Shown here one piece after another: positions 14,206 through 27,874 of a stretch of DNA of 64,000 bases (the first letter of the stretch is position 1; each line of letters starts with the position of its first letter). The notes under the pieces were generated by a model that worked only from the letters and a program-made list of their open reading frames with translations, ran no database searches and was not told the DNA's origin. The position numbers and the translations under genes are program-made. This DNA comes from an uncultured Cellvibrionales bacterium (GTDB lineage Bacteria > Pseudomonadota > Gammaproteobacteria > Pseudomonadales > GM7GCV1), in assembly GCA_913063225.1 (NCBI GenBank), contig CAJXYP010000018.1, forward strand, positions 501 to 64,500. The letters run 5' to 3'.

Positions 14206-15363
14206 TTAACGAGTATCCGGCGGCAATTCGCAGTTCAAATCAAAGGCGATATTTCTATAAGTTTTACCGTTTATCACTATATCCAACTGGTGCTGTCCGG
14301 AATAGTAAGCGCGCGTATTGATCTTGCGGATAGCGTGTTTCTTGCTAATGGCTAGACTTTGCCCCGGCTTTAAGTCCATTTCCTTCCACTTAAATACCTT
14401 AGGCGAGAGTGATCCATTCGCTTTGCGATGATGAATAACAAAATCGATGGCCAGGTGTTGAGTGCTTTTAGACTTTGAATGAATTTGGGTTTCAAAAGCC
14501 AAGGCTTCGCCCAGTTTTATCTTACTACTAGATAGTTTTACGTCACCTAATTCGAGCTTTGGATTAGCCGTAAAACCCAGCAACGGAAATACATCTGCGC
14601 GCCCACTTTTAATCAAGCTGCGCATAGCGTGCCGAACAATCCATTTAGTATCTGCTGAAACTTCATTGGTAGCTTGTGTGCCCCTTAGCCAATATTGGCA
14701 AACCTCAACGGCGATATCCGGATTGTCCTTAGATATATCGTTCAAACTATTGGCCACCGATCGACGCACGTAATCACTTGGGTCGTTATTTAGGCGCGTC
14801 AACAAAGGAATAAGCGGGGTAGGGTCATCGCAGTAGGGTGGCAGCCGCATACCCCAAGGCAATCGTGGTCGGCTGCCTTCAGATACCAAGCGGCGCACCT
14901 GGTGGTTCGAGTCGTCCACCCAGGTTTCAAACGCTGCTAAGCAAAGCTCGGGGTAGCGCAATATAAAGGGCCGAATGGCAAATTCAGCAGAGAACATATG
15001 TGTCAGATGTTTAAGTAGGTCTAAGGATACTTCCGGATGCTCAAGACCATAGGTAGCTGCATAATCGATAACCGGCCAGCTAGCAAAGCTTCTAATAGGG
15101 TCGGTGGGGTCACCGAAGTCCCAATTATTTGGTGCGCGGCGCAAGATATCCGCGGTTTTAACAAAATCATCGGGCAAGTGCTGGTTTAAAGCTGATACAA
15201 GATGGTTAACGCGCTGCTTTAGCCCGAGATCTCGGATACCGCGTAATGCGGTCTGCTCGAATCCCTTTACGTCAAATGCAGGCCAAGCGGCCTGCATACC
15301 TGAGGCAATACGTAGGACGGCTGTTTCGCCTAAGCCGTCTTTCATTAAGAATTGATCTGACAT
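14206..15363 (-). CDS. DNA alkylation repair protein family (COG4335-type HEAT-repeat protein)
   Basis: 385 aa; …RRLVSEGSRPRLPWGMRLP…DPSDYVRRSVANSLNDISKDNP… matches the family pattern as I recall it. Confidence 0.6.
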   Translation of the reverse strand: MSDQFLMKDGLGETAVLRIASGMQAAWPAFDVKGFEQTALRGIRDLGLKQRVNHLVSALNQHLPDDFVKTADILRRAPNNWDFGDPTDPIRSFASWPVIDYAATYGLEHPEVSLDLLKHLTHMFSAEFAIRPFILRYPELCLAAFETWVDDSNHQVRRLVSEGSRPRLPWGMRLPPYCDDPTPLIPLLTRLNNDPSDYVRRSVANSLNDISKDNPDIAVEVCQYWLRGTQATNEVSADTKWIVRHAMRSLIKSGRADVFPLLGFTANPKLELGDVKLSSSKIKLGEALAFETQIHSKSKSTQHLAIDFVIHHRKANGSLSPKVFKWKEMDLKPGQSLAISKKHAIRKINTRAYYSGQHQLDIVINGKTYRNIAFDLNCELPPDTR

Positions 15364-15410
15364 GCATCTAGCTTAGGTATTAGTTTAGGTTGTAGCAATA
15401 TCAGATATTG

Positions 15411-15465
15411 CTGATTTTAGTGGGCGACACGAGGATTGAAAATCCTCGTGTCGAGGTGTTGGGTA
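15411..15465 (+). repeat. tRNA-Phe 3'-half-like repeat, copy R1 (short form; anticodon arm extended into a perfect 11-bp hairpin)
   Basis: ctgattttagtgggCGACACGAGGAttgaaaaTCCTCGTGTCGaggtgttggg. GAGGA-TTGAAAA-TCCTC-GTGTC equals the tRNA-Phe(GAA) anticodon arm plus variable loop. Confidence 0.7.
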
Positions 15466-15521
15466 AGAGAGTATATTTTCGGCGCAGAAGCGCCCATTTG
15501 GCCCTGCCAGCAGTCCGCTCC

Positions 15522-16781
15522 CTAAATTGGCTCTTCCTCGTTGCGAGGGTCTAAATCTGCTGCACCAAGTGTCGTTTTTGGAAGCATCTGAAATGGCTCG
15601 TAGTAGGTTCTGTCAGATTTGTGCAGGGTCAGGCGGTAGGCCGTCCACGTGGCGCCGAAAAAGTAAATAACCCCAATGATCACAAAATAAACATCGACAA
15701 ATCCAACGACAGTGAACCCACCGTAAAGGAGGGGGCCAACGGTAGAGCCGATGCCATATGCCACTAGCATCGCGCTTGAGATTGTTAGAAACTTACCATC
15801 AGCGTTGTCATTTGCGTGGGCGATTGCGAGAGAATACATTGGCATTGCAGTGCCACCCAGGATGAATCCCAACGTATAGAGCGATACCCTGCTAGTGGGC
15901 AAGGATAAGAAAACTATGATGCCAGCGCAAGCGACCAAGCTCAGGCCTAGCAGTACCCATCGTCTATCAATCCAATCGGACAATCGCCCAACTGGAAGTT
16001 GGCAAACTACCCCACCGAGCAGAGTGGCTGCAATAAAGTTTGGGCCAGCACCAGGTTCCAACGAATTGGCATAAACGGCACCGTTGCTCCATACCAGTCC
16101 CATTACCACACCCGACACCGCCGCCAAAATCAGACCTACCTGTGACGCTTTGTAGGTTTGGGCGAAGCTCAGCGTTACTTCAGATGGAATCTCTGGCTGC
16201 GGACTGAGAGTAAGCGCGACAGGAAGTATGGCAAGGCCGAATATTATCGCAATAATAATTGCTCCTTCATTGATATTGGCATCGAATACCAATAGCTGGC
16301 CGAGTAACATCGCGACAAGAGAAAGAAAACCATAGAACGACAAGACCGCTCCCCTCGATTCACTCGGGGATCGCTCGTTCAGCCAGCTTTCCAAAACCAT
16401 GTATAGGCCCGCGAAAGCTGCACCCGTGATTGCACGTGCCGCGATCCAGACTGGAATGAACTGCCACTTCTGAATTATCAGAATCGATACAATGGCGAGA
16501 CCCGAACACACCGTGAATACCCGAATGTGCCCAACTCGCCGAACGAGCAGCGGAATGAAATAGCACCCTAGAATAAAGCCTAGAAAATAAGCAGAACCCG
16601 TTAGCCCTATTGTTGCGGATGACCAGCCCAAAGATTGCGCTGCGAGCGGCAACAACGTCTGTTGAAGACCGTGGCCTACAAGCAAAATGGATAGCGATAA
16701 AAATATGCTAAAAAGGGATAGCAGGATTATTGTCATTTCATATCTAAGAAAGTTTTGTTCTGTCCATTCATGAGAATACAT
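15522..16781 (-). CDS. MFS transporter (12-TM type); the true start may be the ATG at 16736, just outside repeat R2
   Basis: 419 aa and highly hydrophobic, with MFS-like loop motifs (…LLVRRVGHIRVF…). Confidence 0.8.
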   Translation of the reverse strand: MYSHEWTEQNFLRYEMTIILLSLFSIFLSLSILLVGHGLQQTLLPLAAQSLGWSSATIGLTGSAYFLGFILGCYFIPLLVRRVGHIRVFTVCSGLAIVSILIIQKWQFIPVWIAARAITGAAFAGLYMVLESWLNERSPSESRGAVLSFYGFLSLVAMLLGQLLVFDANINEGAIIIAIIFGLAILPVALTLSPQPEIPSEVTLSFAQTYKASQVGLILAAVSGVVMGLVWSNGAVYANSLEPGAGPNFIAATLLGGVVCQLPVGRLSDWIDRRWVLLGLSLVACAGIIVFLSLPTSRVSLYTLGFILGGTAMPMYSLAIAHANDNADGKFLTISSAMLVAYGIGSTVGPLLYGGFTVVGFVDVYFVIIGVIYFFGATWTAYRLTLHKSDRTYYEPFQMLPKTTLGAADLDPRNEEEPI

Positions 16782-16907
16782 GAGAACGTATGATAACTTA
16801 TACCGTGGAAATGTATATCACGTAAGTCTATGATTTAATTAATAAAGTTAAAAATCAGTCTAAATTAAAAATCCTCGAGTCTGTGGTTCGATTCCGCTAG
16901 GCCTATC
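16741..16907 (+). repeat. tRNA-Phe 3'-half-like repeat, copy R2 (long form with 5' arm and iterons; best preserved T-arm)
   Basis: …catgagaatacatgagaacgtatgataacttataccg…aaATTAAAAATCCTCGAGTCTGTGGTTCGATTCCGCtagg. It aligns along about 165 nt with R4 and R5. Confidence 0.8.
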
Positions 16908-16910
16908 TAG

Positions 16911-17897
16911 TCAGTCTTTGAGGTATCGAAAGAATTTTTTCTGGTAAACGGCGGGCGATAAGCCGGTCCCTTGCTTGAATATTCGTCGAAAGAAACTCAC
17001 GTTTTCATATCCAACATTAAATGAGATTTCATCGAATGAGCGTCTACCATTCTCTAGTTCTTTTTTTGCAGCCTCTATTCTGATCTGCTGTAGATATTTT
17101 ATGGCGGACTCTCCAGTCGCTGCTTTAAATCGTCTATTAAAATTGCGCGAACTCATTCCAGATCCTTTTGCCAAGTCTTCAACGGATAAGCTTTGGGGGT
17201 ATTCTGATTCAATCACCTTTTGAGCTTTTAAGATCTGACTGTCTTGGTGATTCTTCTTTGGAATAAAAACAGTAAATGGCAATTGCGACAAACTGTCCAT
17301 ATCAATCAAAGTGCATCGTGAACTTTGCAAGGCTACTTCTCTCCCGCAGTACTTGTTAATAAGATAAATAGACAAATTAAGATCTGCCGTTACTCCTCCA
17401 CCACAAAAGAGGCGTCCTTCGTCAGTAACCATTAAGTCAGTTCGCAAATCTATTTTAGGAAAAGATTTTTTGAATGCATGAGCCACTCCCCAATGAGTCG
17501 TCGCCTTCTTGCCATCCAATAGACCTGTAGCTGCCAAGGTGAAGGCACCTGTGCATATACTGGCTAAGTCAGAACCTTGGCTATAACACTTCTTTAGCCA
17601 ATCTACCTTTGTAAAAAAGGCTTCATCCTGAACTCCAAACTTGAATGCTTGAGAGGGAATTATTATCAAATCAGGTATTTCAATCTCATCGATGGAACAG
17701 TGAGGAGTAATGAGGACCTGGTTTGTCGCCATAACAGGCTTCCCAGTTAGAGTAGCAATTTTTACGTCAAAGAGTGGAGAGGGGGTTTTTCCTAAAATAC
17801 CATTCCACAAGACACCTGCTTGCATAAGAATATCCATAGGTCCACCGACACTTGAAAATAGACAATGTTCTGATGCGAGAATTACTACTTTTTTCAT
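16911..17897 (-). CDS. GlxA-family transcriptional regulator (DJ-1/PfpI-like domain + AraC-type HTH)
   Basis: MKKVVILASEHCLFSSVGGPMDIL… at the N-terminus and an AraC HTH at the C-terminus (…SVEDLAKGSGMSSRNFNRRFK…GYENVSFFRRIFK). An AAGGAT SD precedes the ATG at 17897. Confidence 0.8.
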   Translation of the reverse strand: MKKVVILASEHCLFSSVGGPMDILMQAGVLWNGILGKTPSPLFDVKIATLTGKPVMATNQVLITPHCSIDEIEIPDLIIIPSQAFKFGVQDEAFFTKVDWLKKCYSQGSDLASICTGAFTLAATGLLDGKKATTHWGVAHAFKKSFPKIDLRTDLMVTDEGRLFCGGGVTADLNLSIYLINKYCGREVALQSSRCTLIDMDSLSQLPFTVFIPKKNHQDSQILKAQKVIESEYPQSLSVEDLAKGSGMSSRNFNRRFKAATGESAIKYLQQIRIEAAKKELENGRRSFDEISFNVGYENVSFFRRIFKQGTGLSPAVYQKKFFRYLKD

Positions 17898-18107
17898 GCT
17901 TTTATCCTTTTCCAGACTTGGCCTAATCGGTCTTTTATTGTCCGTTATGAGGCTAACTTGAAAAATGAACAAAAGCTATATTGCATCTATGAGTTTTGGA
18001 CGAAACAAAACTTCTTCGAAAGCAAAGCTATTAACCTTTGCCGTAAGAGATATTGAACCAAGTTGTATACACAATATTTATAACTGAACCAACGAAAGGG
18101 AATATAA

Positions 18108-18404
18108 ATGCAAATCTTAGCTATAAGTAAATTTAAAGAGGGAACAACCATGGACAAAATGGGCCCCCATCTGGCTGATGAAGTAAAGCACACGCTAGAG
18201 GCTTATCTGGACGGAAATATTCGCAATTTCTGGTTCAAGGTGGGTAGCCCCGGCATAGTATTAATGCTGGAAAGTGCTGATGAAGATGAAGCCCTCGGCG
18301 TTTTAGAAGAGATGCCGCTGACGGCTGCCGGGTTTATCGAATTCGATATCATTCCGCTTCAACCACTTAAGCCACTGGGTACTTTGATTGGGCGTAAAAT
18401 GTGA
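18108..18404 (+). CDS. Small protein, possibly with a muconolactone-isomerase-like ferredoxin fold
   Basis: 98 aa with an AAAGGGA SD upstream. The pattern (…W….G.PG…..ES.DE…..L..MPL……E..PL.P) resembles the MIase family. The functional call is weak. Confidence 0.4.
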   Translation: MQILAISKFKEGTTMDKMGPHLADEVKHTLEAYLDGNIRNFWFKVGSPGIVLMLESADEDEALGVLEEMPLTAAGFIEFDIIPLQPLKPLGTLIGRKM

Positions 18405-18470
18405 CCCTGAGAACGCACGATTATTTTAATTTGAATGAAGGCAGCGCTGACAATTTAACCCGCGGTATCA

Positions 18471-18540
18471 GATGATTTTGTCAGTGCTGTTATTTCGAGT
18501 CTAGAATTGAAAATATTCGTGTCGGGGGTTGGATTTGATA
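18471..18540 (+). repeat. tRNA-Phe 3'-half-like repeat, copy R3 (short form)
   Basis: agatgattttgtcag…tctagaATTGAAAATATTCGTGTCGGGGGTTGGATTTGat. Confidence 0.65.
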
Positions 18541-18546
18541 GATTTG

Positions 18547-18987
18547 TTAGGTGTTTTGTTGGGATAAGACATTCAGAGCCAGGTCACGTATTTCGAACGG
18601 TAAAGCAGACGATGCGCTTTCGAAAACTCCCCTAATGTATTCAAAATCTGGTATCCCGCCTGGAACGTGTATAGGGGTCATTTTATACCCCATGACAAGG
18701 GGCTCTCCCGGATCCACAGAAACGTGATGCGTCTTCGCAGGTACTCGCCAAATCAGAGCCTTTTCTTCGGAATCCTTGTCATAGCAAAGCTCGAATCCGC
18801 TTACAGCGCCGTCAGCGCTGTACCAAAATATTAAATCCATTTCATTTGATGAAAACCATCTTCGACGATCTTCACCCTCGATTTGTCGAGTTTTTAAAAC
18901 TTCAGTTAGCATTCTCATGGTACCCAATAGTGAGTGAATAAGGCCTGAGACATCGGTTTTTAATTTAAGAATTGCTTGTTTGTCCAC
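18547..18987 (-). CDS. Hypothetical protein (146 aa, no recognisable domain); its GTG start lies inside repeat R4
   Basis: A long ORF filling the module between R3 and R4. I recognise no motif. Confidence 0.5.
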   Translation of the reverse strand: MDKQAILKLKTDVSGLIHSLLGTMRMLTEVLKTRQIEGEDRRRWFSSNEMDLIFWYSADGAVSGFELCYDKDSEEKALIWRVPAKTHHVSVDPGEPLVMGYKMTPIHVPGGIPDFEYIRGVFESASSALPFEIRDLALNVLSQQNT

Positions 18988-19125
18988 TCATGAGAATACA
19001 TGAGTGTGCATCAGAACCTATACCGGGAAAATGTCGATCGCGTAAGCAACTGATTTTATTGGTTTAGTCAAAATTCCGTCCAAATTGAAAATCATCGTGT
19101 CGGGATTCGATACCAATCTTCGCTA
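18961..19125 (+). repeat. tRNA-Phe 3'-half-like repeat, copy R4 (long form with 5' arm and iterons)
   Basis: …catgagaatacatgagtgtgcatcagaacctataccg…cgtaagcaactgattttattgg…caaATTGAAAATCATCGTGTCGGGATTCGATACCaatc. Confidence 0.8.
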
Positions 19126-19183
19126 TCATCAGTACCTTAATTCCCGTAATTGATTTAATCTGTCTATCTCATAGTTCGAAACT

Positions 19184-20239
19184 TTGTTTAAGGATCACTT
19201 GGAAAAATTGACTCGTCTTGACGGCTTGGATATCGCTCGGTTATTGGCGTTTCTGGGTATGGTTATAGTCAACTTCACAATTGTAATGGGTGCTGAAAGT
19301 GGTGAAGGCACGCTAGGCCTTTTAATCAGTGTACTTCAAGGTAAAGCTGCGGCATCTTTCGTGGTTTTAGCTGGTATTGGATTGGGCTTAGCCGCCCGAA
19401 GACCCATGCCAGGCTTGCGGAGTATCACCCTCAAGCGTGCAGCCTTTCTACTTATCATCGGGTTGTTAAATTCTCTAATATTCGATGCGGACATTCTTCA
19501 CTATTACGCGTTATATTTTTTAGTTGGAATTGTTTGCATAGGTTTATCCGGTCGATTGCTTCTATTTTCTGTCGGTCTGGTAAATCTTACATTTCTACTG
19601 ATGCTATTCCTTTTCAACTATGACTTAGGCTGGAACTGGGAAGCCTATCAGTACGTCGGTTTTTGGACGCCCGACGGCTTTATTCGTAATCTATTTTTTA
19701 ATGGCTGGCATCCAGTATTCCCTTGGAGTGGTTTTTTTCTATTTGGTATATGGCTGAGCAGATGTGACCTTGCAGAGCGATCTATCCAATCTAAATTGAT
19801 TTGGTACGGTTTGCTTGTTCTTGTCACTACGGAATTATTGTCTAATATTGTTGTTGCGCAACTTGCAGGACAGCCAGATCTTCTGGCGTTGTTCGGCACG
19901 ACCCCAATTCCACCGGTACCTCTCTACAGTATTGCGGGCATAGCTTTTGCTTCAGTTCTCATTGGTATGTGCCTACGTTGTTCCAATTGGTTAGCATCTC
20001 GAAAAATAGCGGCGTTTATACTGCCTGCTGGTCGACAGACTCTTACGCTTTATATTGCTCATATCTATCTAGGTATGGGGTGCCTCGAAGCTTTGGGATT
20101 ACTGGGAAATCAAACACTTGAATCAGCGTTAATAGCTTCAGCTATATTCTTCGTTGCATCAGTAATATGCGCTTGGTTATGGAGCAAAAAATTTAGACGT
20201 GGGCCCGTTGAAATGCTTATGCGGGGCTTAGCAGGTTAA
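19184..20239 (+). CDS. DUF418/DUF1624 (YeiB-like) integral membrane protein
   Basis: 351 aa; N-terminal LTRLDGLDIARLLAFLGMVIVNF is the typical family signature; multi-TM. Confidence 0.7.
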   Translation: MFKDHLEKLTRLDGLDIARLLAFLGMVIVNFTIVMGAESGEGTLGLLISVLQGKAAASFVVLAGIGLGLAARRPMPGLRSITLKRAAFLLIIGLLNSLIFDADILHYYALYFLVGIVCIGLSGRLLLFSVGLVNLTFLLMLFLFNYDLGWNWEAYQYVGFWTPDGFIRNLFFNGWHPVFPWSGFFLFGIWLSRCDLAERSIQSKLIWYGLLVLVTTELLSNIVVAQLAGQPDLLALFGTTPIPPVPLYSIAGIAFASVLIGMCLRCSNWLASRKIAAFILPAGRQTLTLYIAHIYLGMGCLEALGLLGNQTLESALIASAIFFVASVICAWLWSKKFRRGPVEMLMRGLAG

Positions 20240-20280
20240 AGCTCTTTTTAAGAAACAGCTTTAGTTTTAAACCATTAGTA

Positions 20281-20418
20281 TGTTTATTCACGAGAACACA
20301 TGAGAACGTATGAAAACTTATACCGAAGATTTGGCGATCACGTAAGCAACTCAATTACTTGATAAAGCCGAAGAAATAAGTCAGATTCAAAATCTTCTTG
20401 TCGGTGGGTAGTCCCTGG
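20281..20418 (+). repeat. tRNA-Phe 3'-half-like repeat, copy R5 (long form, more diverged)
   Basis: …cacgagaacacatgagaacgtatgaaaacttataccg…cacgtaagcaactcaattactt…cagATTCAAAATCTTCTTGTCGGTGGGTAGTCC. Confidence 0.72.
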
Positions 20419-20557
20419 GAATCCTTGCTACCCCAGCGCCACTAAGTATCAGAGCAATAAAAACGGCAAGAACAGCCCAGCCTTGCCACTTGAATGGAAA
20501 CCCCCATCCCCATCCATATCTCTTTTGCGGAAACCAAATATCCTTTTTAGGATTCAT
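20387..20557 (-). pseudogene. Short ORF (56 codons) for the N-terminal part of a small WGWG-motif membrane protein; its reading frame ends inside repeat R5
   Basis: My own translation, not in the ORF track: MNPKKDIWFPQKRYGWGWGFPFKWQGWAVLAVFIALILSGAGVARIPRDYPPTRRF*. An AGGAAAAAG SD lies upstream. The last codons and the stop are encoded by the tRNA-like part of R5. Confidence 0.35.
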
Positions 20558-20615
20558 ATGTCTTTTTCCTGTAAGCAGGCTTCAATGTTATGACGTTTTG
20601 TGCCGAATTACACAG

Positions 20616-21410
20616 CTAGTTAGTAATAGCATTCGCTATCAAACGACCATTCACCTCTTTAAGCTGAATGGGCATCTCGAACAAATCAGATATTTTTTCC
20701 TCGGTTAACAATTCGCTTCGCGTACCCTCGTCTACCAGTTGTCCATCTTTGAGAAAAACGAACCAGTCGATCTCAGGCAAAATTTCCTGCAGATGGTGGG
20801 TTACCAGAACAATTTTCTTGCCGGAAGCAATAAGCATGGACATGGTTTCCATATATTGATGGGTCGCTTTGATATCCAGGCCAGACGTCGGTTCGTCAAG
20901 GATCAGATATTCCGGATCGTGTATCAACGCGCGCGCCAGCAGACATCGTCGTTGTTCTCCAGTCGAAAGTGTCGCAAAGTGATTCTCCGATAAATGGCCC
21001 ATTCCCGCGGATTCGATAGCACTTCCTGCTGCTTCGACCTGCTCAGTGCTGTAGCTCTGGTGAGACCAGGTTGTCAGGCTGGTGTAGAACTGTGAAACAA
21101 CCACGTCAAACACCGAAGAGTTTTTGTGTATTTTCGATTGTAGCTCGTGGGAAACCAGGCCCATTCGCAGGCGCAGCCTGTCCATTTCCCGAGGAGATTG
21201 CCCCAAAACCTTGAAGCTCGAATGCTCATCCGCTGCGGGATAGAGATCTCTGAAAATCAGTTTGAGTAAGGTTGACTTACCCGAGCCGTTGGGCCCGATC
21301 ACCGCACAACTTTGATCTGGCGGCAGTGTCAATGTAAGCCCCGAAAAAACGGCCTTTTTGCCACACTTTACGGTGACATTCTTCATTTCAATCAGTGCGG
21401 TCTTTGCCAT
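20616..21410 (-). CDS. ABC transporter ATP-binding protein (ModF-like, orphan; no adjacent permease or binding protein)
   Basis: Walker A GPNGSGKSTLLKL, signature LSTGEQRRCLLARAL, Walker B YLILDEPTSGLD. Confidence 0.8.
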   Translation of the reverse strand: MAKTALIEMKNVTVKCGKKAVFSGLTLTLPPDQSCAVIGPNGSGKSTLLKLIFRDLYPAADEHSSFKVLGQSPREMDRLRLRMGLVSHELQSKIHKNSSVFDVVVSQFYTSLTTWSHQSYSTEQVEAAGSAIESAGMGHLSENHFATLSTGEQRRCLLARALIHDPEYLILDEPTSGLDIKATHQYMETMSMLIASGKKIVLVTHHLQEILPEIDWFVFLKDGQLVDEGTRSELLTEEKISDLFEMPIQLKEVNGRLIANAITN

Positions 21411-21504
21411 TTAAAACCACTGCTCGTGCGAAAACATATTTTCTCCTGCCTTAACGGCGTTAATAATGGGGGTCGCCATAGTTAGTACAAATTAACGGGA
21501 CCAG

Positions 21505-21560
21505 CGCCCATTTTGTATTGATCTGTGTAAATTGAAAACCCTAGGGTTGGTGGTTATGTT
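21505..21560 (+). repeat. tRNA-Phe 3'-half-like repeat, copy R6 (short form, decayed)
   Basis: ccattttgtattgatctgtgtaaATTGAAAACCCTAGGGTTGGTGGTTATGTT. Confidence 0.5.
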
Positions 21561-21579
21561 TTGGTCGCTGGGTAAATGG

Positions 21580-21774
21580 TCAGTGCCGATGAATACGTCG
21601 TTCTAGCGCTTGATTAATTTCTCGCAGCTCCTGCAGTTCCTCGATTAAGCTCAACGCCAGAGCAATGCCAGCCCAATCGATATCTAAATCAGTATGCAGC
21701 CTAACTGCCTTTCGCGCGGTGCAAACCATGGTCGCAGTGAAGTACCAGTTGCTTGGGTCATCGCCAGAGGGCAC
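21580..21774 (-). pseudogene. cbpM: C-terminal fragment of chaperone modulator CbpM; no cbpA upstream
   Basis: …SNWYFTATMVCTARKAVRLHTDLDIDWAGIALALSLIEELQELREINQALERRI parallels E. coli CbpM …[39 protein letters not shown]…. About 35 N-terminal residues (the HTH part) are missing. Confidence 0.6.
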
Positions 21775-21944
21775 AACGCTAGAGAATTAACGTTGTTCCT
21801 ACCTATACAACGACTATGGTATGCCTGTGTGATATTCGGTCATTGATATGAGTCAAAAATATCTTTGACGAGAGTTCTACTTGCTTCATCGGGCAGTTTT
21901 ATATCACACAAGCAGCTGAAAGCATTAGCAGCGTTAGAATCGGC

Positions 21945-21982
21945 CGGAATTAAAAATCTTCCCGGCATAGTTCGATGTATAT
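21945..21982 (+). repeat. tRNA-Phe 3'-half-like repeat, copy R7 (decayed)
   Basis: ggaATTAAAAATCTTCCCGGCATAGTTCGATGTAT. Both anchor blocks (ATTGAAAATC and GTTCGAT) are present at the right spacing. Confidence 0.45.
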
Positions 21983-22100
21983 CAGGGCTCTGACCTGTTC
22001 ATTCGTTTTATGCAGAGTAATTTTTTGTTAAGCCGCGTTCTGGAATATCGCCATTCCCTATTTCAAGGTTAGAATAAACAAACGTCTTTTGGGGGTTCTT

Positions 22101-22643
22101 ATGCGCTTAATTCAAAATTTTTCTTCGCTGTTGGTGGGGACTATATTTTTACCTTTCTTCGCTTTTGCTGCGAATGTTGAGGTAACACTTATTGATGAAT
22201 TGGATGGCGATCTAAATAGCTACTGCTTAGATATTGTGGGCGGCAAATTGAACGCCAACCCAGAGGGCGGACTGCAAGCGCACACATGCTATAGCTATCA
22301 AGGAGAGCTAGGCGTCGATCAGGCGATGGATTCAGACCTGATAAGTCAGGGCATATTTAAAGTAGTGGGCTTTGATGTCTGTATGACCCAAACAGGCTAT
22401 GTGGACGGTTCGAAGCTGGCTCTTAGCAGCTGTACTGACGCCAGAACTCAACGTTTTCGTTTGAACGGAGATGGCACTATAACGCCATCAGGGTCTCCAG
22501 GGCAGTGTCTAACTGCCGGCGAGGAAACCCTACTGGGCAATAATGGGCAGTCTCGTCATCAAATCAAAAGTTTGACTATCGAATCTTGTGGGGCAGTGGA
22601 TAAAGCATATCAACAATGGCGTACGCGAGAAACTGACGACTGA
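22101..22643 (+). CDS. Secreted ricin-B-type lectin-like protein
   Basis: Signal peptide MRLIQNFSSLLVGTIFLPFFAFAANV. Repeated Cys-containing …CLD…/…QCLTAG… units and a terminal QQW motif fit a beta-trefoil lectin. A GGGGG SD precedes the ATG at 22101. Confidence 0.5.
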   Translation: MRLIQNFSSLLVGTIFLPFFAFAANVEVTLIDELDGDLNSYCLDIVGGKLNANPEGGLQAHTCYSYQGELGVDQAMDSDLISQGIFKVVGFDVCMTQTGYVDGSKLALSSCTDARTQRFRLNGDGTITPSGSPGQCLTAGEETLLGNNGQSRHQIKSLTIESCGAVDKAYQQWRTRETDD

Positions 22644-22664
22644 TCTAATATTGCTTTCGCCATG

Positions 22665-22705
22665 AAGAAAGAAAAACTCGTGGCGCGAGTTCCATTCGAC
22701 GCCAA
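22665..22705 (+). repeat. tRNA-Phe 3'-half-like repeat, copy R8 (decayed; right end of the array)
   Basis: aagaaaGAAAAACTCGTGGCGCGAGTTCCATTCGACGCC compared with tRNA-Phe GAAAATCCCCGTGTCCTTGGTTCGATTCCGAG. Confidence 0.45.
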
Positions 22706-22754
22706 GCTTCTATATTTGCTTAATCGTTCCATATTTCCGATCTCGAGACTAGAA

Positions 22755-22786
22755 AAAGCCCCCTATACAGAAGTATAGAGGGCTTT
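22755..22786. terminator. Hairpin terminator between the convergent lectin-like gene and membrane protein gene
   Basis: aaagccccctatac-agaa-gtatagagggcttt: a 14-bp stem with one mismatch, flanked by an A-run and T-rich sequence. Confidence 0.65.
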
Positions 22787-22829
22787 GTCACAAGCTACAG
22801 GAGGGACTAGCCCTTCCAAATTATTCTAA

Positions 22830-23462
22830 TTAAAGTACGTTAAGCAGAACAACCAATACGGCCGTCAGTCCCAAGCTACAACCGATTACCCCGTTAACGC
22901 TGGTCATTGGTCCTTGCTTGCCAACCAAGCCATTTACTTCCAACGCGATAATGATTGCCAGTACTGCCATTAGTCCGGTTCCGCCAAATCCAGTACCGTA
23001 GCCATGACCCGCATAGTGAGGGCCAGCTAGCATGCCGAATAACATAGGCGCCGAGAATAGTGTGTTAGTCCGAGAAGCCAGCAACGCCTTTGCACCAGCG
23101 GCTGCTTTGTCGCCGCCTTCAACAAGACCTAAGGCGATTTTTTGAGCAGGCCAGATAACCATCCATACATTGGCGGCCATCAAGGTACCCATTGCCGCTC
23201 CCATAAGAATGTAGTCGTTCAGCACAATAGTGATTGTGTACAACAGATACAGGCCAGTGATAAAGGTGAACATTGCGCCCCATCGGAACCACCAGAGCGC
23301 GCTGGGTGCGAGCTTGGCTTTAGCATCCGCTAAGCCCTCTGCGCTTGCTAGCTTAAAGTAGCCGCCTTGCACAAAGTTAAAGTAATAAAGCATACCTATC
23401 CAAACAATCCCAAACAGCACGTGGGTCCAACGGGCTATAAAATTAAGTAGTTCGACGGTCAT
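22830..23462 (-). CDS. Integral membrane protein with a PuuD N-terminal-like signature (function unknown)
   Basis: MTVELLNFIARWTHVLFGIVWIGMLYYFNFVQ…, several TM segments, and an AGGGGA SD before the ATG at 23462. Confidence 0.5.
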   Translation of the reverse strand: MTVELLNFIARWTHVLFGIVWIGMLYYFNFVQGGYFKLASAEGLADAKAKLAPSALWWFRWGAMFTFITGLYLLYTITIVLNDYILMGAAMGTLMAANVWMVIWPAQKIALGLVEGGDKAAAGAKALLASRTNTLFSAPMLFGMLAGPHYAGHGYGTGFGGTGLMAVLAIIIALEVNGLVGKQGPMTSVNGVIGCSLGLTAVLVVLLNVL

Positions 23463-23639
23463 TAGTAAATCCCCTAAATTAAAAAACCTTAGATGATACA
23501 AGTTTATGCAGGTGTAATTGTTGGCGAATCCCAAGGAAATAGCAATTTACAATAGTTTAAGCCCTCTGAGCAGCCGCACAGAAGGCTTAAACGAGAACTC
23601 AAAAACAGGTCTAGCTAATTAATTACCGGCATTGGCTGG

Positions 23640-24056
23640 CTATGGTGCTGGTGTAGTAACGCCGGCACTGAAAACCTCCAGAGTTAATGAGTCTTCCAGA
23701 GCTGTGTAATAGTGATGAACATAGGCAGGAGCCATAAACATCTGGCCAGGGCCGAGTATGTATTCTTTTTCACCGCTAAACGCTTTGATACTGCCTTCAA
23801 GAACAATCACCATTTGCTCAAAAGCGTGGTTATGACTAGGGGTCGAAGTGCCTTCAGCAATGGTCAATTGGCCTACACGTATGCTTGACAAACCGGCTGT
23901 TCTCATTTGTAGACCTTCGCGAAGGTTGCGGGCTTCCATACCGGACAGATCAACTATTTCCATCTTTGGTTCTATCAGTAGCTGTCCCTGTGCAAAACTG
24001 AACTGCGAGCAGGCTAGAAGAATAATGGTAAAAGCTAAGTTGGCTGTGTTTTTCAT
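23640..24056 (-). CDS. Secreted cupin-domain protein
   Basis: Signal peptide MKNTANLAFTIILLACSQFSFAQ. Cupin motifs …PSHNHAFEQMVIVLEG… and …PAYVHHYY…. Confidence 0.7.
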   Translation of the reverse strand: MKNTANLAFTIILLACSQFSFAQGQLLIEPKMEIVDLSGMEARNLREGLQMRTAGLSSIRVGQLTIAEGTSTPSHNHAFEQMVIVLEGSIKAFSGEKEYILGPGQMFMAPAYVHHYYTALEDSLTLEVFSAGVTTPAP

Positions 24057-24199
24057 CGGTATTAAACCCTTATTGATTTGTCACAATGGTAGCGCCATAG
24101 CACTCAAAAAATCGCTTAATCATGGTAAAGATTAATTAATTGGCGATTAGCAGTAAATGAGGGGTTTTTTTTCTAAAAGACTGCTCGAGCAGTAACTTA

Positions 24200-27100
24200 C
24201 TAATCCAATACTGGTCTTAACCAGCGCTCTAAGTCATCCACAGCAATACCTTTGCGGGTAGCCAAGCTGGCAAGCTGGTCTCTACCTATTTTGCCGGTAC
24301 CAAAATAGCGGGACTCCGGGTGAGAGAAGTACCAGCCGCTAACAGCAGCTGCTGGATGCATAGCGTAGTTTTCGGTGAGTTTGCAGCAAAGCGCCGCTTC
24401 GGCATCTAATAGCTGAAATAACGTTCCCTTTTCCGTGTGGTCTGGGCAGGCCGGGTAGCCTGGCGCAGGGCGGATGCCCTGATACTTCTCTGCGATTAGG
24501 TCTTCGTTACTCAGAGATTCATCACTCTGATAGCCCCAGAACTCTCTGCGAACTAGTTTGTGTAGATGTTCTGCGAGTGACTCGGCAAAGCGATCCGCGA
24601 TAGCTTTAATCATTATTGATCTGTAGTCGTCGTGCTCTGCTTCGTATTTGGCTGACAGTTCGTCGGCGCCTTCAATACAAACTACAAAGCCACCAAGGTG
24701 ATCAGCTAGGCCAGATTCTTTCGGCGCAACAAAGTCCGCCAAGCTCTGGAATTTCTTATCGGCATTGCGGTTTTGCTGCTGACGAATATGGTGGAGCAGG
24801 GCGACTTGTTCTGACCGAGAGTCGTCTGCGTAGACCTGAAGGTCATCGTCATCAACTTGGTTTGCAGGCCAAATTCCAAATATGGCTTTTGGTCTAAGCA
24901 GATTTTTCTCTACCACTTCGGTAAGCATTTCTTGCGCATCGGCAAAGAGTGAAGTGGCGGCTTCGCCCACTACTTTATCTTTCAGAATACGCGGGTATTT
25001 TCCTGCTAGCTCCCAAGTAATAAAGAAGGGAGTCCAATCTATGGTGCCAACCAAATCGGTAAGCTCAATGTTATCTATTTTATGCACACCCAATTGCTTA
25101 GGCACCGGCGGCTGGTAGTTAGTCCAGTCGATAACGGGCTTTTTCTTTACGGCTTCTTCGTAGGCCAGCAATGGAACCTTGCGTCTATTGGCTACGCGCT
25201 CGCGCACCTTGACGTACTCATTTTGAATTTCCAGAACATAGGCATCGCGATGCTCTTTGCTAAGTAGCTTAGAGGCGGTTCCCACCGCGCGCGAAGCATC
25301 GGGCACGTAAACCACCTGATTCTTCTTATATTCAGGAGCAATTTTCACCGCCGTGTGTGCTTTTGAAGTGGTAGCGCCACCGATTAAAAGCGGCACCTGA
25401 TAGCCTTGTCGTTCCATCTCGTTCGAAATAGTTACCATCTCGTCCAGAGAGGGAGTTATGAGTCCGCTTAGGCCAATAATGTCGCACTGGGTCGCCTTGG
25501 CTTCTGCCAATATACGCTCGGCCGGAACCATTACGCCGAGGTCGATAACCTCGTAGTTATTGCACTGCAGCACAACGCCCACAATATTTTTACCAATATC
25601 GTGCACGTCGCCTTTAACCGTAGCTAAAAGAATCTTACCGTTGGTTTCGCCGGGCTGTTTAAGCGCCTCGATATAGGGCTCCAAATGGGCCACAGCCTGC
25701 TTCATTACCCGAGCGGATTTCACCACTTGCGGGAGAAACATCTTGCCCTCACCAAACAGGTCACCAACGACATTCATGCCATCCATTAGCGGCCCTTCGA
25801 TTACATCAATGGGTTTTTTCGCTAGTAGGCGCGCTTCTTCGGTATCTTCAACAATAAATGCTGCATTGCCTTTTACCAGTGCATGAGAGAGCCGCTCGGA
25901 TACTGGCAATTCACGCCAGGTTAGATCTTCAACTACTACTTGGCCTTTGCCGTCGCCACGAAATTTAGTGGCGATATCGACCATATGGTCGGTGCCGAGC
26001 TTGCCTTTATTCAGGATTACATCTTCAACCGCTTCTTTGAGTTCGGCAGGCACTTCGTCATAAACCGCGAGTTGTGAGGCATTTACAATGCCCATATTCA
26101 AACCGGCTTTAATCGCGTAGTACAAAAACACCGAGTGAATCGCTTCACGAACCGGATTATTACCGCGGAAGGAAAAGGATACATTTGAAATGCCACCAGA
26201 TATTCCGACGCCGGGCAGGTTGTCGCGTATCCAGCGAGCGCCTTCGATGAAATCCGTGCCGTATGCATTGTGTTCTTCAATACCGGTGGCGACCGCAAAT
26301 ACATTGGGATCAAAAATGATATCCCGCGGATCGTAATCAAGCTCTTTGATTAACAAATTATAGGCCCGCTCACATATTTGCTTACGGCGTTCGAGATTGT
26401 CAGCTTGGCCATCTTCATCAAAAGCCATGACCACAATTGCTGCACCGTAGCGTTGGCAAAGTTTTGCCTGATACAGGAAGATTTCTTCGCCTTCTTTTAA
26501 AGAAATAGAATTAACAATGGGTTTGCCCTGAATGCACTTGAGCCCCGCCTCAATAATCGACCACTTGGAGGAATCGACCATAAAAGGTACTTTGGCAATA
26601 TCTGGCTCAGCAGCGATAAGGTTTAAGAATCGCACCATAGCCGCTTGGCTATCCAACATCGCTTCGTCCATGTTGATATCAATTATCTGAGCTCCGTTCT
26701 CTACCTGTTGTAGAGCAACAGAGATAGCTTTGTCGTAATCCTCGTCGACAATCAGACGCTTAAAGACTGCTGAACCAGTGACATTGCAGCGCTCGCCAAC
26801 ATTCACGAACAAAGAATCTGAGGAAATATTAAAGGGTTCATTACCCGCTAGCCGACAAGCGGGAAGCGGATCGATTGGAGTCCGCGGCTCGTATTCTGCA
26901 ACCGCCTCAGCAATAGCCTTGATATGTTCCGGGGTGGTACCACAGCAACCGCCAATAATATTCAGGAAGCCAGAACCAGCAAACTCCTTGATGATTTCTG
27001 CCATCTCAGCTGGAGTCTGATCGTATTCGCCAAATTCATTTGGCAAACCGGCATTCGGATGCGCGCTAACTGCAGTCTCTGCAATCCGGGATAGTTCTTG

Positions 27101-27874
27101 AACGTAGGGGCGCAGTTGTTCTGCACCCAAAGCACAGTTCAAACCAATAGAAATAGGTTTTGCGTGGCGTACAGAGTTCCAGAATGCTTCGGTAGTTTGA
27201 CCGGTTAGCGTACGGCCACTGGCGTCGGTGATAGTACCGGAGATGGCAACTGGCAGGCGTATTCCTGTGGAGTCAAAGGCCTCTTCACAAGCGAAGATAG
27301 CGGCTTTTGCATTTAGCGTGTCGAAGACCGTCTCGATCATGAGTAGATCTACGTCGCCTTCTATTAAAGCTTCGGCCGCTTCCCGATAATCGACAACCAA
27401 TTCATCGAAGGTGATTTTCCGTGCACCGGGATCGTTTACGTCGGGCGAAATAGAGGCGGTAACGTTTGTAGGCCCTAGAACCCCAGCAACAAAGCGTGGC
27501 TTGTCCGGTGTTTTTGCTGTGTATTCATCGGCTGCTTCGCGGGCGAGTTTGGCTCCGGCCAAATTAAGATCGCGTACCGCATGCTGCAAACTGTAGTCAG
27601 CCTGAGCTATGGCTGTACAGCTAAAGGTGTTTGTCTCAAGAATATCTGCGCCGGCTTCTAGATAAGCAGCGTGAATCTCCCGAATTACATCGGGTCGAGT
27701 AATGGAGAGAAGATCGCTATTGCCCTTTAGGCTACTAGGGTGATCGGCAAATGGTCCGGCACGATAGTCTTCTTCTTGCAGTCCGTAGCGCTGGATCATA
27801 GTACCCATGGCGCCATCCAATATTAGAATGCGTTGGGAGAGTTGATCCGAGATAGAAGCTTTGCGACTTTTCAT
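24200..27874 (-). CDS. metH: Cobalamin-dependent methionine synthase
   Basis: 1224 aa with Hcy-binding, pterin-binding, B12-binding ([11 protein letters not shown]) and AdoMet activation domains. Confidence 0.97.

Follow-up and report, generated by a model that had tools for sequence, protein, structure and literature searches.

A 7-kb accessory region of a marine gammaproteobacterium was found to be cut into modules of one or two genes by same-direction relics of the 3′ half of a tRNA-Phe gene. The region occupies 15.4–22.7 kb of the 64-kb stretch of contig CAJXYP010000018.1 that we analyzed (hereafter the window). It lies between the DNA alkylation repair gene alkC (14206–15363, − strand) and a block containing p234, a cupin gene and metH (22830–27874, − strand). 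Up to eight repeats, R1 to R8, were numbered from the alkC side to the metH side, with R1 in the upstream region of alkC. Domain and homology searches identified the first module as an MFS transporter gene (15522–16736, −). The second module (16911–18404) has genes on both strands, encoding a GlxA/FtrA-like regulator of the DJ-1 plus AraC type (−) and a divergent 98-aa protein (+). The third module is a 146-aa (or 124-aa) orphan without a family match (18547–18987, −), and the fourth encodes a DUF418/YeiB-like membrane protein (19184–20239, +). These are followed by a 56-aa membrane open reading frame (ORF) that runs into R5 together with an orphan ABC ATPase gene (20387–21410, −), by an N-terminally truncated cbpM fragment that matches residues 35–96 of 101 (21580–21774, −), and by a gene for a secreted ricin-B-type lectin (22089–22643, +). 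The gene assignments of an initial annotation, made from the letters of the window alone, proved to be right.

The modules measure 0.4–1.6 kb and contain one or two genes each, in mixed orientation. Only 0–60 nt separate the repeats from the neighboring genes on either side, too little to accommodate decayed integrase genes or element backbones. The composition of the island is mildly unusual, although the signal is weak: its GC content is 0.444 compared with 0.472 for the rest, and GC content at third codon positions is low only in the GlxA and DUF418 genes.

To establish the origin of the repeats we used as query a canonical proteobacterial tRNA-Phe 34-mer that runs from anticodon loop to T loop, which is a composite of real tRNA-Phe sequences rather than the host's own gene. 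In an ungapped scan of both strands of the whole window, the six best + strand matches were R2 (30/34), R3 (25/34), R1, R5 and R6 (23/34 each) and R4 (21/34), with the best background matches at 20–21; R4 reached 28/31 when a 1-nt gap was allowed. Gapped local alignment gave scores of 28–51 for R1–R6, and the maximum among 3418 control tiles was 24. A 21-nt core pattern occurred five times, always between 15.4 and 20.4 kb, where 0.02 occurrences were expected by chance. No further copies were present in the other 57 kb of the window. Thus, the repeats derive from tRNA-Phe, with similarity from the anticodon loop onward, and the identity of the sites to the tRNA part is 60–88%.

The left boundary of the similarity lies at the loop. 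Immediately left of the loop, R2, R4, R5 and R6 have a common sequence that is not tRNA (GTCYAAA and similar), and no copy has similarity to a tRNA 5′ half; therefore the block of identity to tRNA begins at the loop. We also considered that the repeats might be decayed full-length tRNA genes, but D-arm similarity within the sequence left of the loop was no better than in shuffled sequence. ARAGORN found no tRNA gene in the window, and Rfam gave no match at the gathering score, nor any in the region at an E value of 10. These results bear out the initial annotation, which had reported a tRNA-Phe-derived block beginning at the anticodon loop, repeated in one direction between unrelated accessory genes and without a tRNA 5′ half in any copy. 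A BLAST search of R2 against plasmids, set up independently of the tRNA hypothesis, matched through the tRNA-like part only, and the targets included a bona fide tRNA-Phe (identified by ARAGORN in L087; L numbers denote sequences retrieved in our searches). Another target was a tRNA-Phe fragment on a Ruegeria pomeroyi megaplasmid, which begins in the anticodon loop and adjoins a gene annotated as DUF6538. This domain presumably heads some tyrosine integrases, in which case the Ruegeria fragment would be an attachment-site scar.

Two regularities run through the array. Seven of seven copies lie on one strand (p 0.016), and tRNA-likeness declines from left to right, away from alkC and towards metH (Spearman −0.81, p 0.015). 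The loop itself is not uniform: at position 3, which corresponds to the first anticodon base, R1, R3, R4 and R6 have G, R2 and R7 have A, and R5 has C.

R1 (15411–15465, +), the leftmost site, differs in character from the other copies. The initial annotation had described a stem-loop here, GAGGA / TTGAAAA / TCCTC, and this stem-loop is in fact part of a perfect 11-bp inverted repeat, CGACACGAGGA / TCCTCGTGTCG (15425–15453), around the 7-nt loop TTGAAAA, with a DNA folding z-score of −8.3. R1 matches tRNA-Phe at 18/19 positions up to the variable loop, where the match ends abruptly. On its left side is a short piece, CTGATTTTAGTGG, of the proximal part of a conserved arm that precedes the tRNA part in the long forms. 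R2 (16755–16907, +) is such a long form and the best-preserved copy, consisting of the ~108-nt arm and the tRNA-Phe 3′ part; its T arm is intact (TGTGG-TTCGATT-CCGCT), its loop reads TTAAAAA and, as noted initially, it contains GTGGTTCGATTCCGC. R4 (18975–19125, +) and R5 (20275–20425, +) are likewise long forms, the former ending in the tRNA-Phe 3′ part and the latter in a tRNA-like part. R5 reads TTCAAAA in the loop and has a damaged T loop; it also contains a stretch of CCCTGGGAA that is similar to the 3′ acceptor strand.

The remaining copies are more degraded. R3 had initially been placed at 18471–18540; in addition to its tRNA-like core it has a much-decayed arm, in which CCTGAGAACGCACGAT resembles CATGAGAACGTATGAT of R2, and it is probably a decayed long form that extends from 18406 to 18540 (+). 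R6 (21522–21568, +) is a short form without a detectable arm, 12 nt from the stop codon of the cbpM fragment. R7 (21888–21982, +) combines a proximal arm with a weak core, TTAAAAATCTTC. Its tRNA match covers only 12 nt of loop and stem (p 0.15), and it is the best match of an R1–R6 profile outside the training sequences (E 0.25). Its arm, in which ATCACACAAGCAGCTGAA resembles ATCACGTAAGCAACTCAA, matches in register with an E value of 0.0045, a score reached by none of 600 control segments; R7 is thus supported mainly by the flanking arm. R8 (22668–22703, +) would be the last and most decayed copy, with a gapped match at p ~0.004. It was missed by the R1–R6 profile and can also be read as a terminator-like hairpin on the − strand, and its membership in the array is uncertain. 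The initial count of eight tRNA-Phe 3′-half copies therefore stands for R1–R6, depends mainly on the arm for R7 and is marginal for R8.

The ~108-nt arm to the left of the tRNA part is found in R2, R4 and R5, and weakly in R3 and R7. The long forms of R4 and R5 are 76% and 64% identical to R2, and the alignment of all three has a mean column identity of 78%. An arm profile recognized R2, R4 and R5 with nhmmer E values of 1e-28 to 1e-31, although these three are its own training sequences. Within the arm, three CATGAGAA-like motifs recur at a spacing of 11 nt and precede two conserved blocks, CTTATACCG and ATCNCGTAAGCAACT. By analogy with the element-borne attachment site (attP) of known integrases, the phased CATGAGAA motifs are putative binding sites of the arm type or of an accessory protein.

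We looked for other functions of the repeats. A structured RNA or an attC-like hairpin was rejected, with no Rfam match, no fold and a single compensatory pair among the three sequences; folding of the long-form DNA gave z-scores of −0.07 to −1.05 on either strand, no better than shuffled sequence. A role as terminator or promoter was likewise rejected, as the number of consensus sites equaled that in shuffled sequence and R1 has no T tract. Neither of the attC boundary motifs, RYYYAAC and GTTRRRY, occurs in R2, R4 or R5. The score for terminal inverted repeats was 4–5 of 40, and the best match in the window to Escherichia coli dif was 18/28 and did not lie at a repeat.

The arm was then searched for elsewhere. 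The exact arm pattern TCAYGAGAAYACATGAGNNNGNAT had no match in 185,579 species-representative genomes or in IMG/VR, and its one match in JGI metagenomes was a chance match inside a phage primase/helicase gene. The long forms retrieved nothing from phages by BLAST, and only the tRNA part was matched in plasmids. Patterns for arm plus loop, mid-arm, and left core arm plus loop gave only chance matches or one conserved phage coding region in IMG/VR, and neither profile reached beyond the pattern itself. The phage region is represented by six viral contigs (L118–L123) with a conserved coding stretch containing GTCCAAATTGAAAATCGTCG; its likeness to the repeat core is due to chance, and it is not a related site.

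We next compared the locus with its relatives. The lineage is poorly sampled and Porticoccaceae-like: the closest sequences in the protein collection share no more than 80% identity with AlkC and 90% with MetH, the species-representative set holds only one related genome, and MetH identity among the relatives compared was at most ~90%. The gene order metH – [slot] – alkC – sfsA – dksA is conserved, with alkC kept beside sfsA in all relatives, in agreement with the initial designation of the flanking genes as core. The content of the slot varies. It is empty in one species represented by eight contigs, all alike (L003/L110/L111), and in a second species (L090/L091). It holds one 1246-aa gene in L002, two large genes in L004–L006, and PhoX, SDR and beta-lactamase genes in L115, and in L116/L117 a p234 homologue (84%) directly follows metH. 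The empty or variable slot identifies the interval as a long-standing hotspot of presence and absence among relatives. L088 has an apparent inversion with one breakpoint in the gap. In this contig (10138–11458; 89% MetH identity), metH is followed by a 265-aa gene and a DUF6152 gene, both on the opposite strand; the block from alkC to DUF6152 seems to be that of L003, inverted rather than replaced, with the breakpoint in the metH–alkC gap.

In L003 the otherwise empty site retains one copy, GCGAGGA-ATTAAAA-TCCTCGT, which is situated between the stop codon of metH and the region upstream of alkC. This solo copy occupies the position orthologous to R1 (profile E 0.036), so that the left boundary of the island coincides with R1. 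Upstream of it is an in-register arm piece, in which CGCAAGTAACTGAATTAGTG resembles CGTAAGCAACTGATTTTATTGG (E 0.01; p 0.03–0.04). To judge from the sequences compared, the tRNA-derived site is older than the split between the lineages of the window and L003, and the array is present only in the lineage of the window. Neither a tRNA-like copy nor the arm was found in L002, L004–L006, L088, L089 or L115–L117, and there was no tRNA gene at the orthologous locus in L002–L006, L088, L089 or L115–L117, a search that did not cover L090, L091, L110 and L111.

The module gene that we traced outside the window was that for the DUF418 protein, whose nearest homologue is 76% identical and whose other homologues, from various classes, are at most 61% identical. 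The 76% homologue lies on short contigs beside an rve fragment, without arm or core. In L112 (150–800; also in L113) the fragment is 69 aa long and of the IS3 transposase type, and it is accompanied by a 100-aa ORF; the two are bracketed by inverted copies of GGGCTTCGACCCCTTAAATT.

A recombinase was sought in every ORF of the island and in twenty flanking ORFs of at least 180 aa. No Phage_integrase or other recombinase domain was found in the ORFs scanned, all of which were accessory or housekeeping genes, and the initial report that the region has no integrase holds to this extent; ORFs shorter than 180 aa outside the island and about twenty of at least 180 aa were not part of the scan, the long ones being taken for housekeeping genes from synteny or operon context.

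Several known systems resemble this locus. Additive flexible genomic islands, described in marine and freshwater bacteria, are defined by direct repeats of part of a tRNA gene that bound small accessory cassettes (PMC4898812, PMC10872708). tRNA-Phe is among the most used targets of the additive islands of Alteromonas (PMC4898812), and the Methylophilaceae have islands, 330 bp to 42 kb in size, that are bounded by recurring tRNA-Lys repeats (PMC10872708). As in our locus, the cassettes of the Alteromonas tRNA-Phe islands and of the tRNA-Lys island fGI-2 of 'Ca. Methylopumilus' can be as small as one gene and often come without an integrase (PMC4898812; PMC10872708). The array shares with these islands, and with tandem accretion in general, the same-orientation partial-tRNA repeats that delimit segments, as seen for R1–R6 on the + strand between unrelated genes. 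However, additive islands adjoin an intact tRNA gene, and their repeats are short pieces of its 3′ end (e.g. 20 nt), whereas the window has no tRNA gene and its repeats begin at the anticodon loop and include a 108-nt arm of non-tRNA sequence. The locus works like additive or accretion islands but lacks two of their defining features, the intact target tRNA (in the window and at the loci of the relatives scanned) and the recombinase (in the ORFs scanned). The novelty claimed in the initial annotation was overstated, since partial-tRNA additive islands are known in marine bacteria; the missing tRNA gene and the one-gene size of the modules are nonetheless unusual.

Tycheposons of Prochlorococcus also integrate at an island-proximal tRNA gene and have partial tRNA copies between tandem elements, with remnants scattered through the island (bioRxiv 10.1101/2020.12.28.424599). 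In contrast to the modules described here, they are several kb or larger and encode a tyrosine or large serine recombinase of their own, usually together with a primase, helicase or polymerase as replication module, none of which was found in the island, and tRNA-Phe is not among their seven Prochlorococcus targets. The arrays of cis-mobilizable elements (CIMEs) and the ssrA arrays of Dehalococcoides arise by repeated integration at one attachment (att) site, which yields head-to-tail elements with internal att copies. Members of accretion arrays without an integrase can still be moved by the recombinase of a neighbor (PMC5704250; PMC3146451), but CIME and ssrA arrays hold at least one integrase-bearing member and a functional target gene, and the modules of our array are much smaller.

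Integron arrays and CALINs (attC clusters without an integrase) are similar in having many small modules with one site each, one site orientation and no integrase in the array. The sites described here are tRNA-derived rather than attC, form no imperfect hairpins (z −0.1 to −1.0) and lack RYYYAAC and GTTRRRY; in addition, no IntI integrase was present among the ORFs scanned and the cassettes are not co-oriented, with genes on both strands. Xer-dependent modules (IMEX, Acinetobacter pdif) are small modules without a recombinase that use a host tyrosine recombinase at sites with 11-bp arms and a 6–8-nt spacer. R1 has the same geometry, but pdif sites alternate in orientation, unlike those of the array, which also have no sequence likeness to dif. 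A miniature inverted-repeat transposable element (MITE) or repetitive extragenic palindromic (REP) sequence does not fit the low terminal inverted repeat score, the single orientation or the confinement of the copies to the array within the 64-kb window. From these comparisons we conclude that the locus is not an integron, a MITE or a dif-module array. It is an orphan eight-site array of the anticodon-loop type, made up of one-gene modules, with a conserved arm and anchored on a tRNA-mimic hairpin.

The explanation that we favor, with a probability of roughly 0.68, is that site-specific recombination, acting repeatedly at one tRNA-Phe-derived att site, assembled an additive genomic island in the alkC–metH interval, which now survives as a fossil. 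By analogy, similarity that starts at the anticodon loop would be the signature of the anticodon-loop class of tyrosine integrases. Integrases of this class use the 7-nt loop as their overlap region, and their core-binding inverted repeats are supplied by the symmetric stem. The 11-bp inverted repeats and 7-nt spacer of R1 have the geometry of a tyrosine-recombinase core site. An anticodon-centered attP is common, with 2083 islands in Islander (PMC4383910). The ICEAfe1 integrase was reported to need no more than 19 bp around the anticodon loop for integration, as cited in a preprint (bioRxiv 10.1101/2020.11.02.365908), and a bare stem-loop such as R1 could therefore be a target outside a tRNA gene.

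According to the fossil-island model, crossover would occur in the 7-nt anticodon loop (TTGAAAA), and a tyrosine recombinase would use the flanking arms of the anticodon stem as its inverted core-binding sites. With each insertion the array would gain cargo and a further site in unchanged orientation, and this new site would consist of the element-side ~108-nt arm with its three CATGAGAA motifs, then the loop, then the tRNA-Phe 3′ part. New DNA would enter at the alkC-proximal R1, shifting older modules towards metH; one-strand orientation and left-to-right decay are what is expected if the array grew at one end, that of R1. The recombinase would have been lost or be encoded outside the window, e.g. 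by an element located at the genuine tRNA-Phe gene, and the array would now be largely inert and decaying. The modules may be the trimmed remains of full elements, or they may have arrived as small units without an integrase. Tight packing, the lack of an integrase remnant and the apparent arm at the leftmost and solo sites argue for small units. An inert fossil is favored by the decayed state of the copies, the differences among their overlap bases, the presence of gene fragments, the site of the sister species, which is empty without variation, and the DUF418 homologue without repeats.

Several results weigh against the fossil island. Searches of species-representative genomes, JGI metagenomes, IMG/VR, phages and plasmids yielded no match to the arm, and no tRNA-like relic was seen in other relatives whose slot holds different genes. 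No module was seen elsewhere flanked by these repeats, the DUF418 gene being the one module gene traced. There is neither an integrase, an excisionase nor an integrase remnant among the scanned ORFs and no intact tRNA-Phe in the window. Seven clean losses of an integrase gene are awkward for the version in which full elements arrived, as there is no room for decayed backbones. A weaker objection is that R1 and the L003 solo site seem to carry part of the arm, unlike a classical tRNA-side junction.

This last feature, the apparent arm at R1 and at the L003 solo site, would be better accounted for by recombination between like sites than by recombination of attP with a tRNA gene, and it fits an integron-like alternative. 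Here the modules would be small circular integrase-less units, each with cargo and one site (arm, core and tRNA half), joined to a like site by a recombinase encoded elsewhere, in the way that attC recombines with attI or another attC, and the solo copy of the sister species, with its single arm and core, would be an empty landing site. Such a system could be a remnant or a still-usable form of cassette capture, landing at R1, a bare anticodon-stem-loop mimic outside any tRNA gene. Modules of 0.4–1.6 kb, with one or two genes placed tight against the sites and without integrase remnants, fit this proposal, as does the presence of eight sites in 7 kb: tandem arrays of at least three islands, each with its own integrase, are very rare, accounting for 4 of the 3919 islands in Islander (PMC4383910). 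However, the sites are decayed, with 60–88% identity to the tRNA part and 64–76% between pairs of long forms, and loop position 3 of the overlap is G, A or C depending on the copy, a difference that should prevent the copies from recombining with one another. Mixed gene orientation and sites without an attC-type fold or attC boundary motifs are also unlike an integron. The DUF418 homologue elsewhere lacks such flanks, the site is empty in all eight contigs of the sister species, and no related sites were present in the public collections searched. We found no evidence for movement of single modules. We therefore consider both a cassette-capture system of this kind and its landing at R1 unlikely. 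The initial annotation had proposed integrase-less mini-elements or a new cassette-capture system, and that part of its interpretation found no support: the DUF418 homologue lacks the repeats, the loops differ, the copies are decayed and the site is empty in all eight sister contigs.

The two other explanations dispense with site-specific capture. If the repeats were a tRNA-derived dispersed repeat (MITE- or REP-like) that piled up in a dispensable, variable region, they would be unrelated to the arrival of the genes. The units are indeed short, non-coding and intergenic, and the slot is variable in relatives that have no repeats, indicating that gene turnover there does not need them. A dispersed element is very improbable nonetheless, given that the copies share one orientation, are absent from the 57 kb of flanking sequence, have no terminal inverted repeats, have an arm pattern without a match in large public collections and show a graded decay along the array. 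Local tandem duplication or unequal crossing-over is equally hard to credit. In that scenario an ancestral spacer, composed of the alkC upstream region and a tRNA-Phe pseudogene remnant, would have been multiplied and the genes inserted later by other routes. The weak similarity of the arm to the alkC upstream region of the window and L003 (p 0.02–0.04; E 0.01) is in its favor, but it leaves unexplained why a different foreign gene lies between each pair of copies, and R2 keeps a better T arm than R1, its supposed ancestor.

If the array is only a fossil, as the favored explanation holds, it provides a clean record of a streamlined marine genome gaining single accessory genes at one hotspot, and it indicates that scars made of tRNA fragments can persist after the tRNA gene and the integrase are both gone. 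Tools of the Islander type need a tRNA gene and an integrase and so would miss such a locus. Should the modules turn out to be integrase-less units, the integron idea of ordered single-gene capture by a trans-acting recombinase would extend to a second, unrelated type of site, and bare anticodon-stem-loop mimics may act as landing pads outside tRNA genes.

Inspection of the module genes revealed two further features at the repeats. The cbpM remnant (21580–21774, −), whose stop codon is 12 nt from R6, is not accompanied by cbpA; it could be donor-chromosome DNA that once lay beside a tRNA-Phe gene and was brought in with an element. The 56-aa Trp/Gly-rich membrane ORF (20387–20557, −) has its C-terminal codons inside the tRNA-like part of R5, and its reading frame seems to have been cut or extended by the R5 junction.

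The edges of the island also have elements of their own. A near-perfect palindrome, AGCAATATC-A-GATATTGCT, lies at 15396–15414, ~35 nt upstream of the alkC start. Its AGCAATAYC half is kept upstream of alkC in all relatives (L003, L090/L091, L002, L004), even those without a tRNA-like copy, and the palindrome is probably an operator or promoter element of alkC. The distribution of AlkC is patchy. A small Porticoccaceae group has 62–80% identity, the next matches in a protein search (~50%) come from Verrucomicrobiota/Kiritimatiellota (Pontiella, Oceaniferula), Colwellia and Mariprofundus, and a genome scan found Methylophaga at 44–48%. alkC itself may be an old acquisition, possibly the first module of the array. 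At the other end, a hairpin, AGCCCCCTATAC…GTATAGAGGGCT, with a T tract on the − strand (22752–22790) looks like the intrinsic terminator of p234 and marks the right-hand edge of the island.

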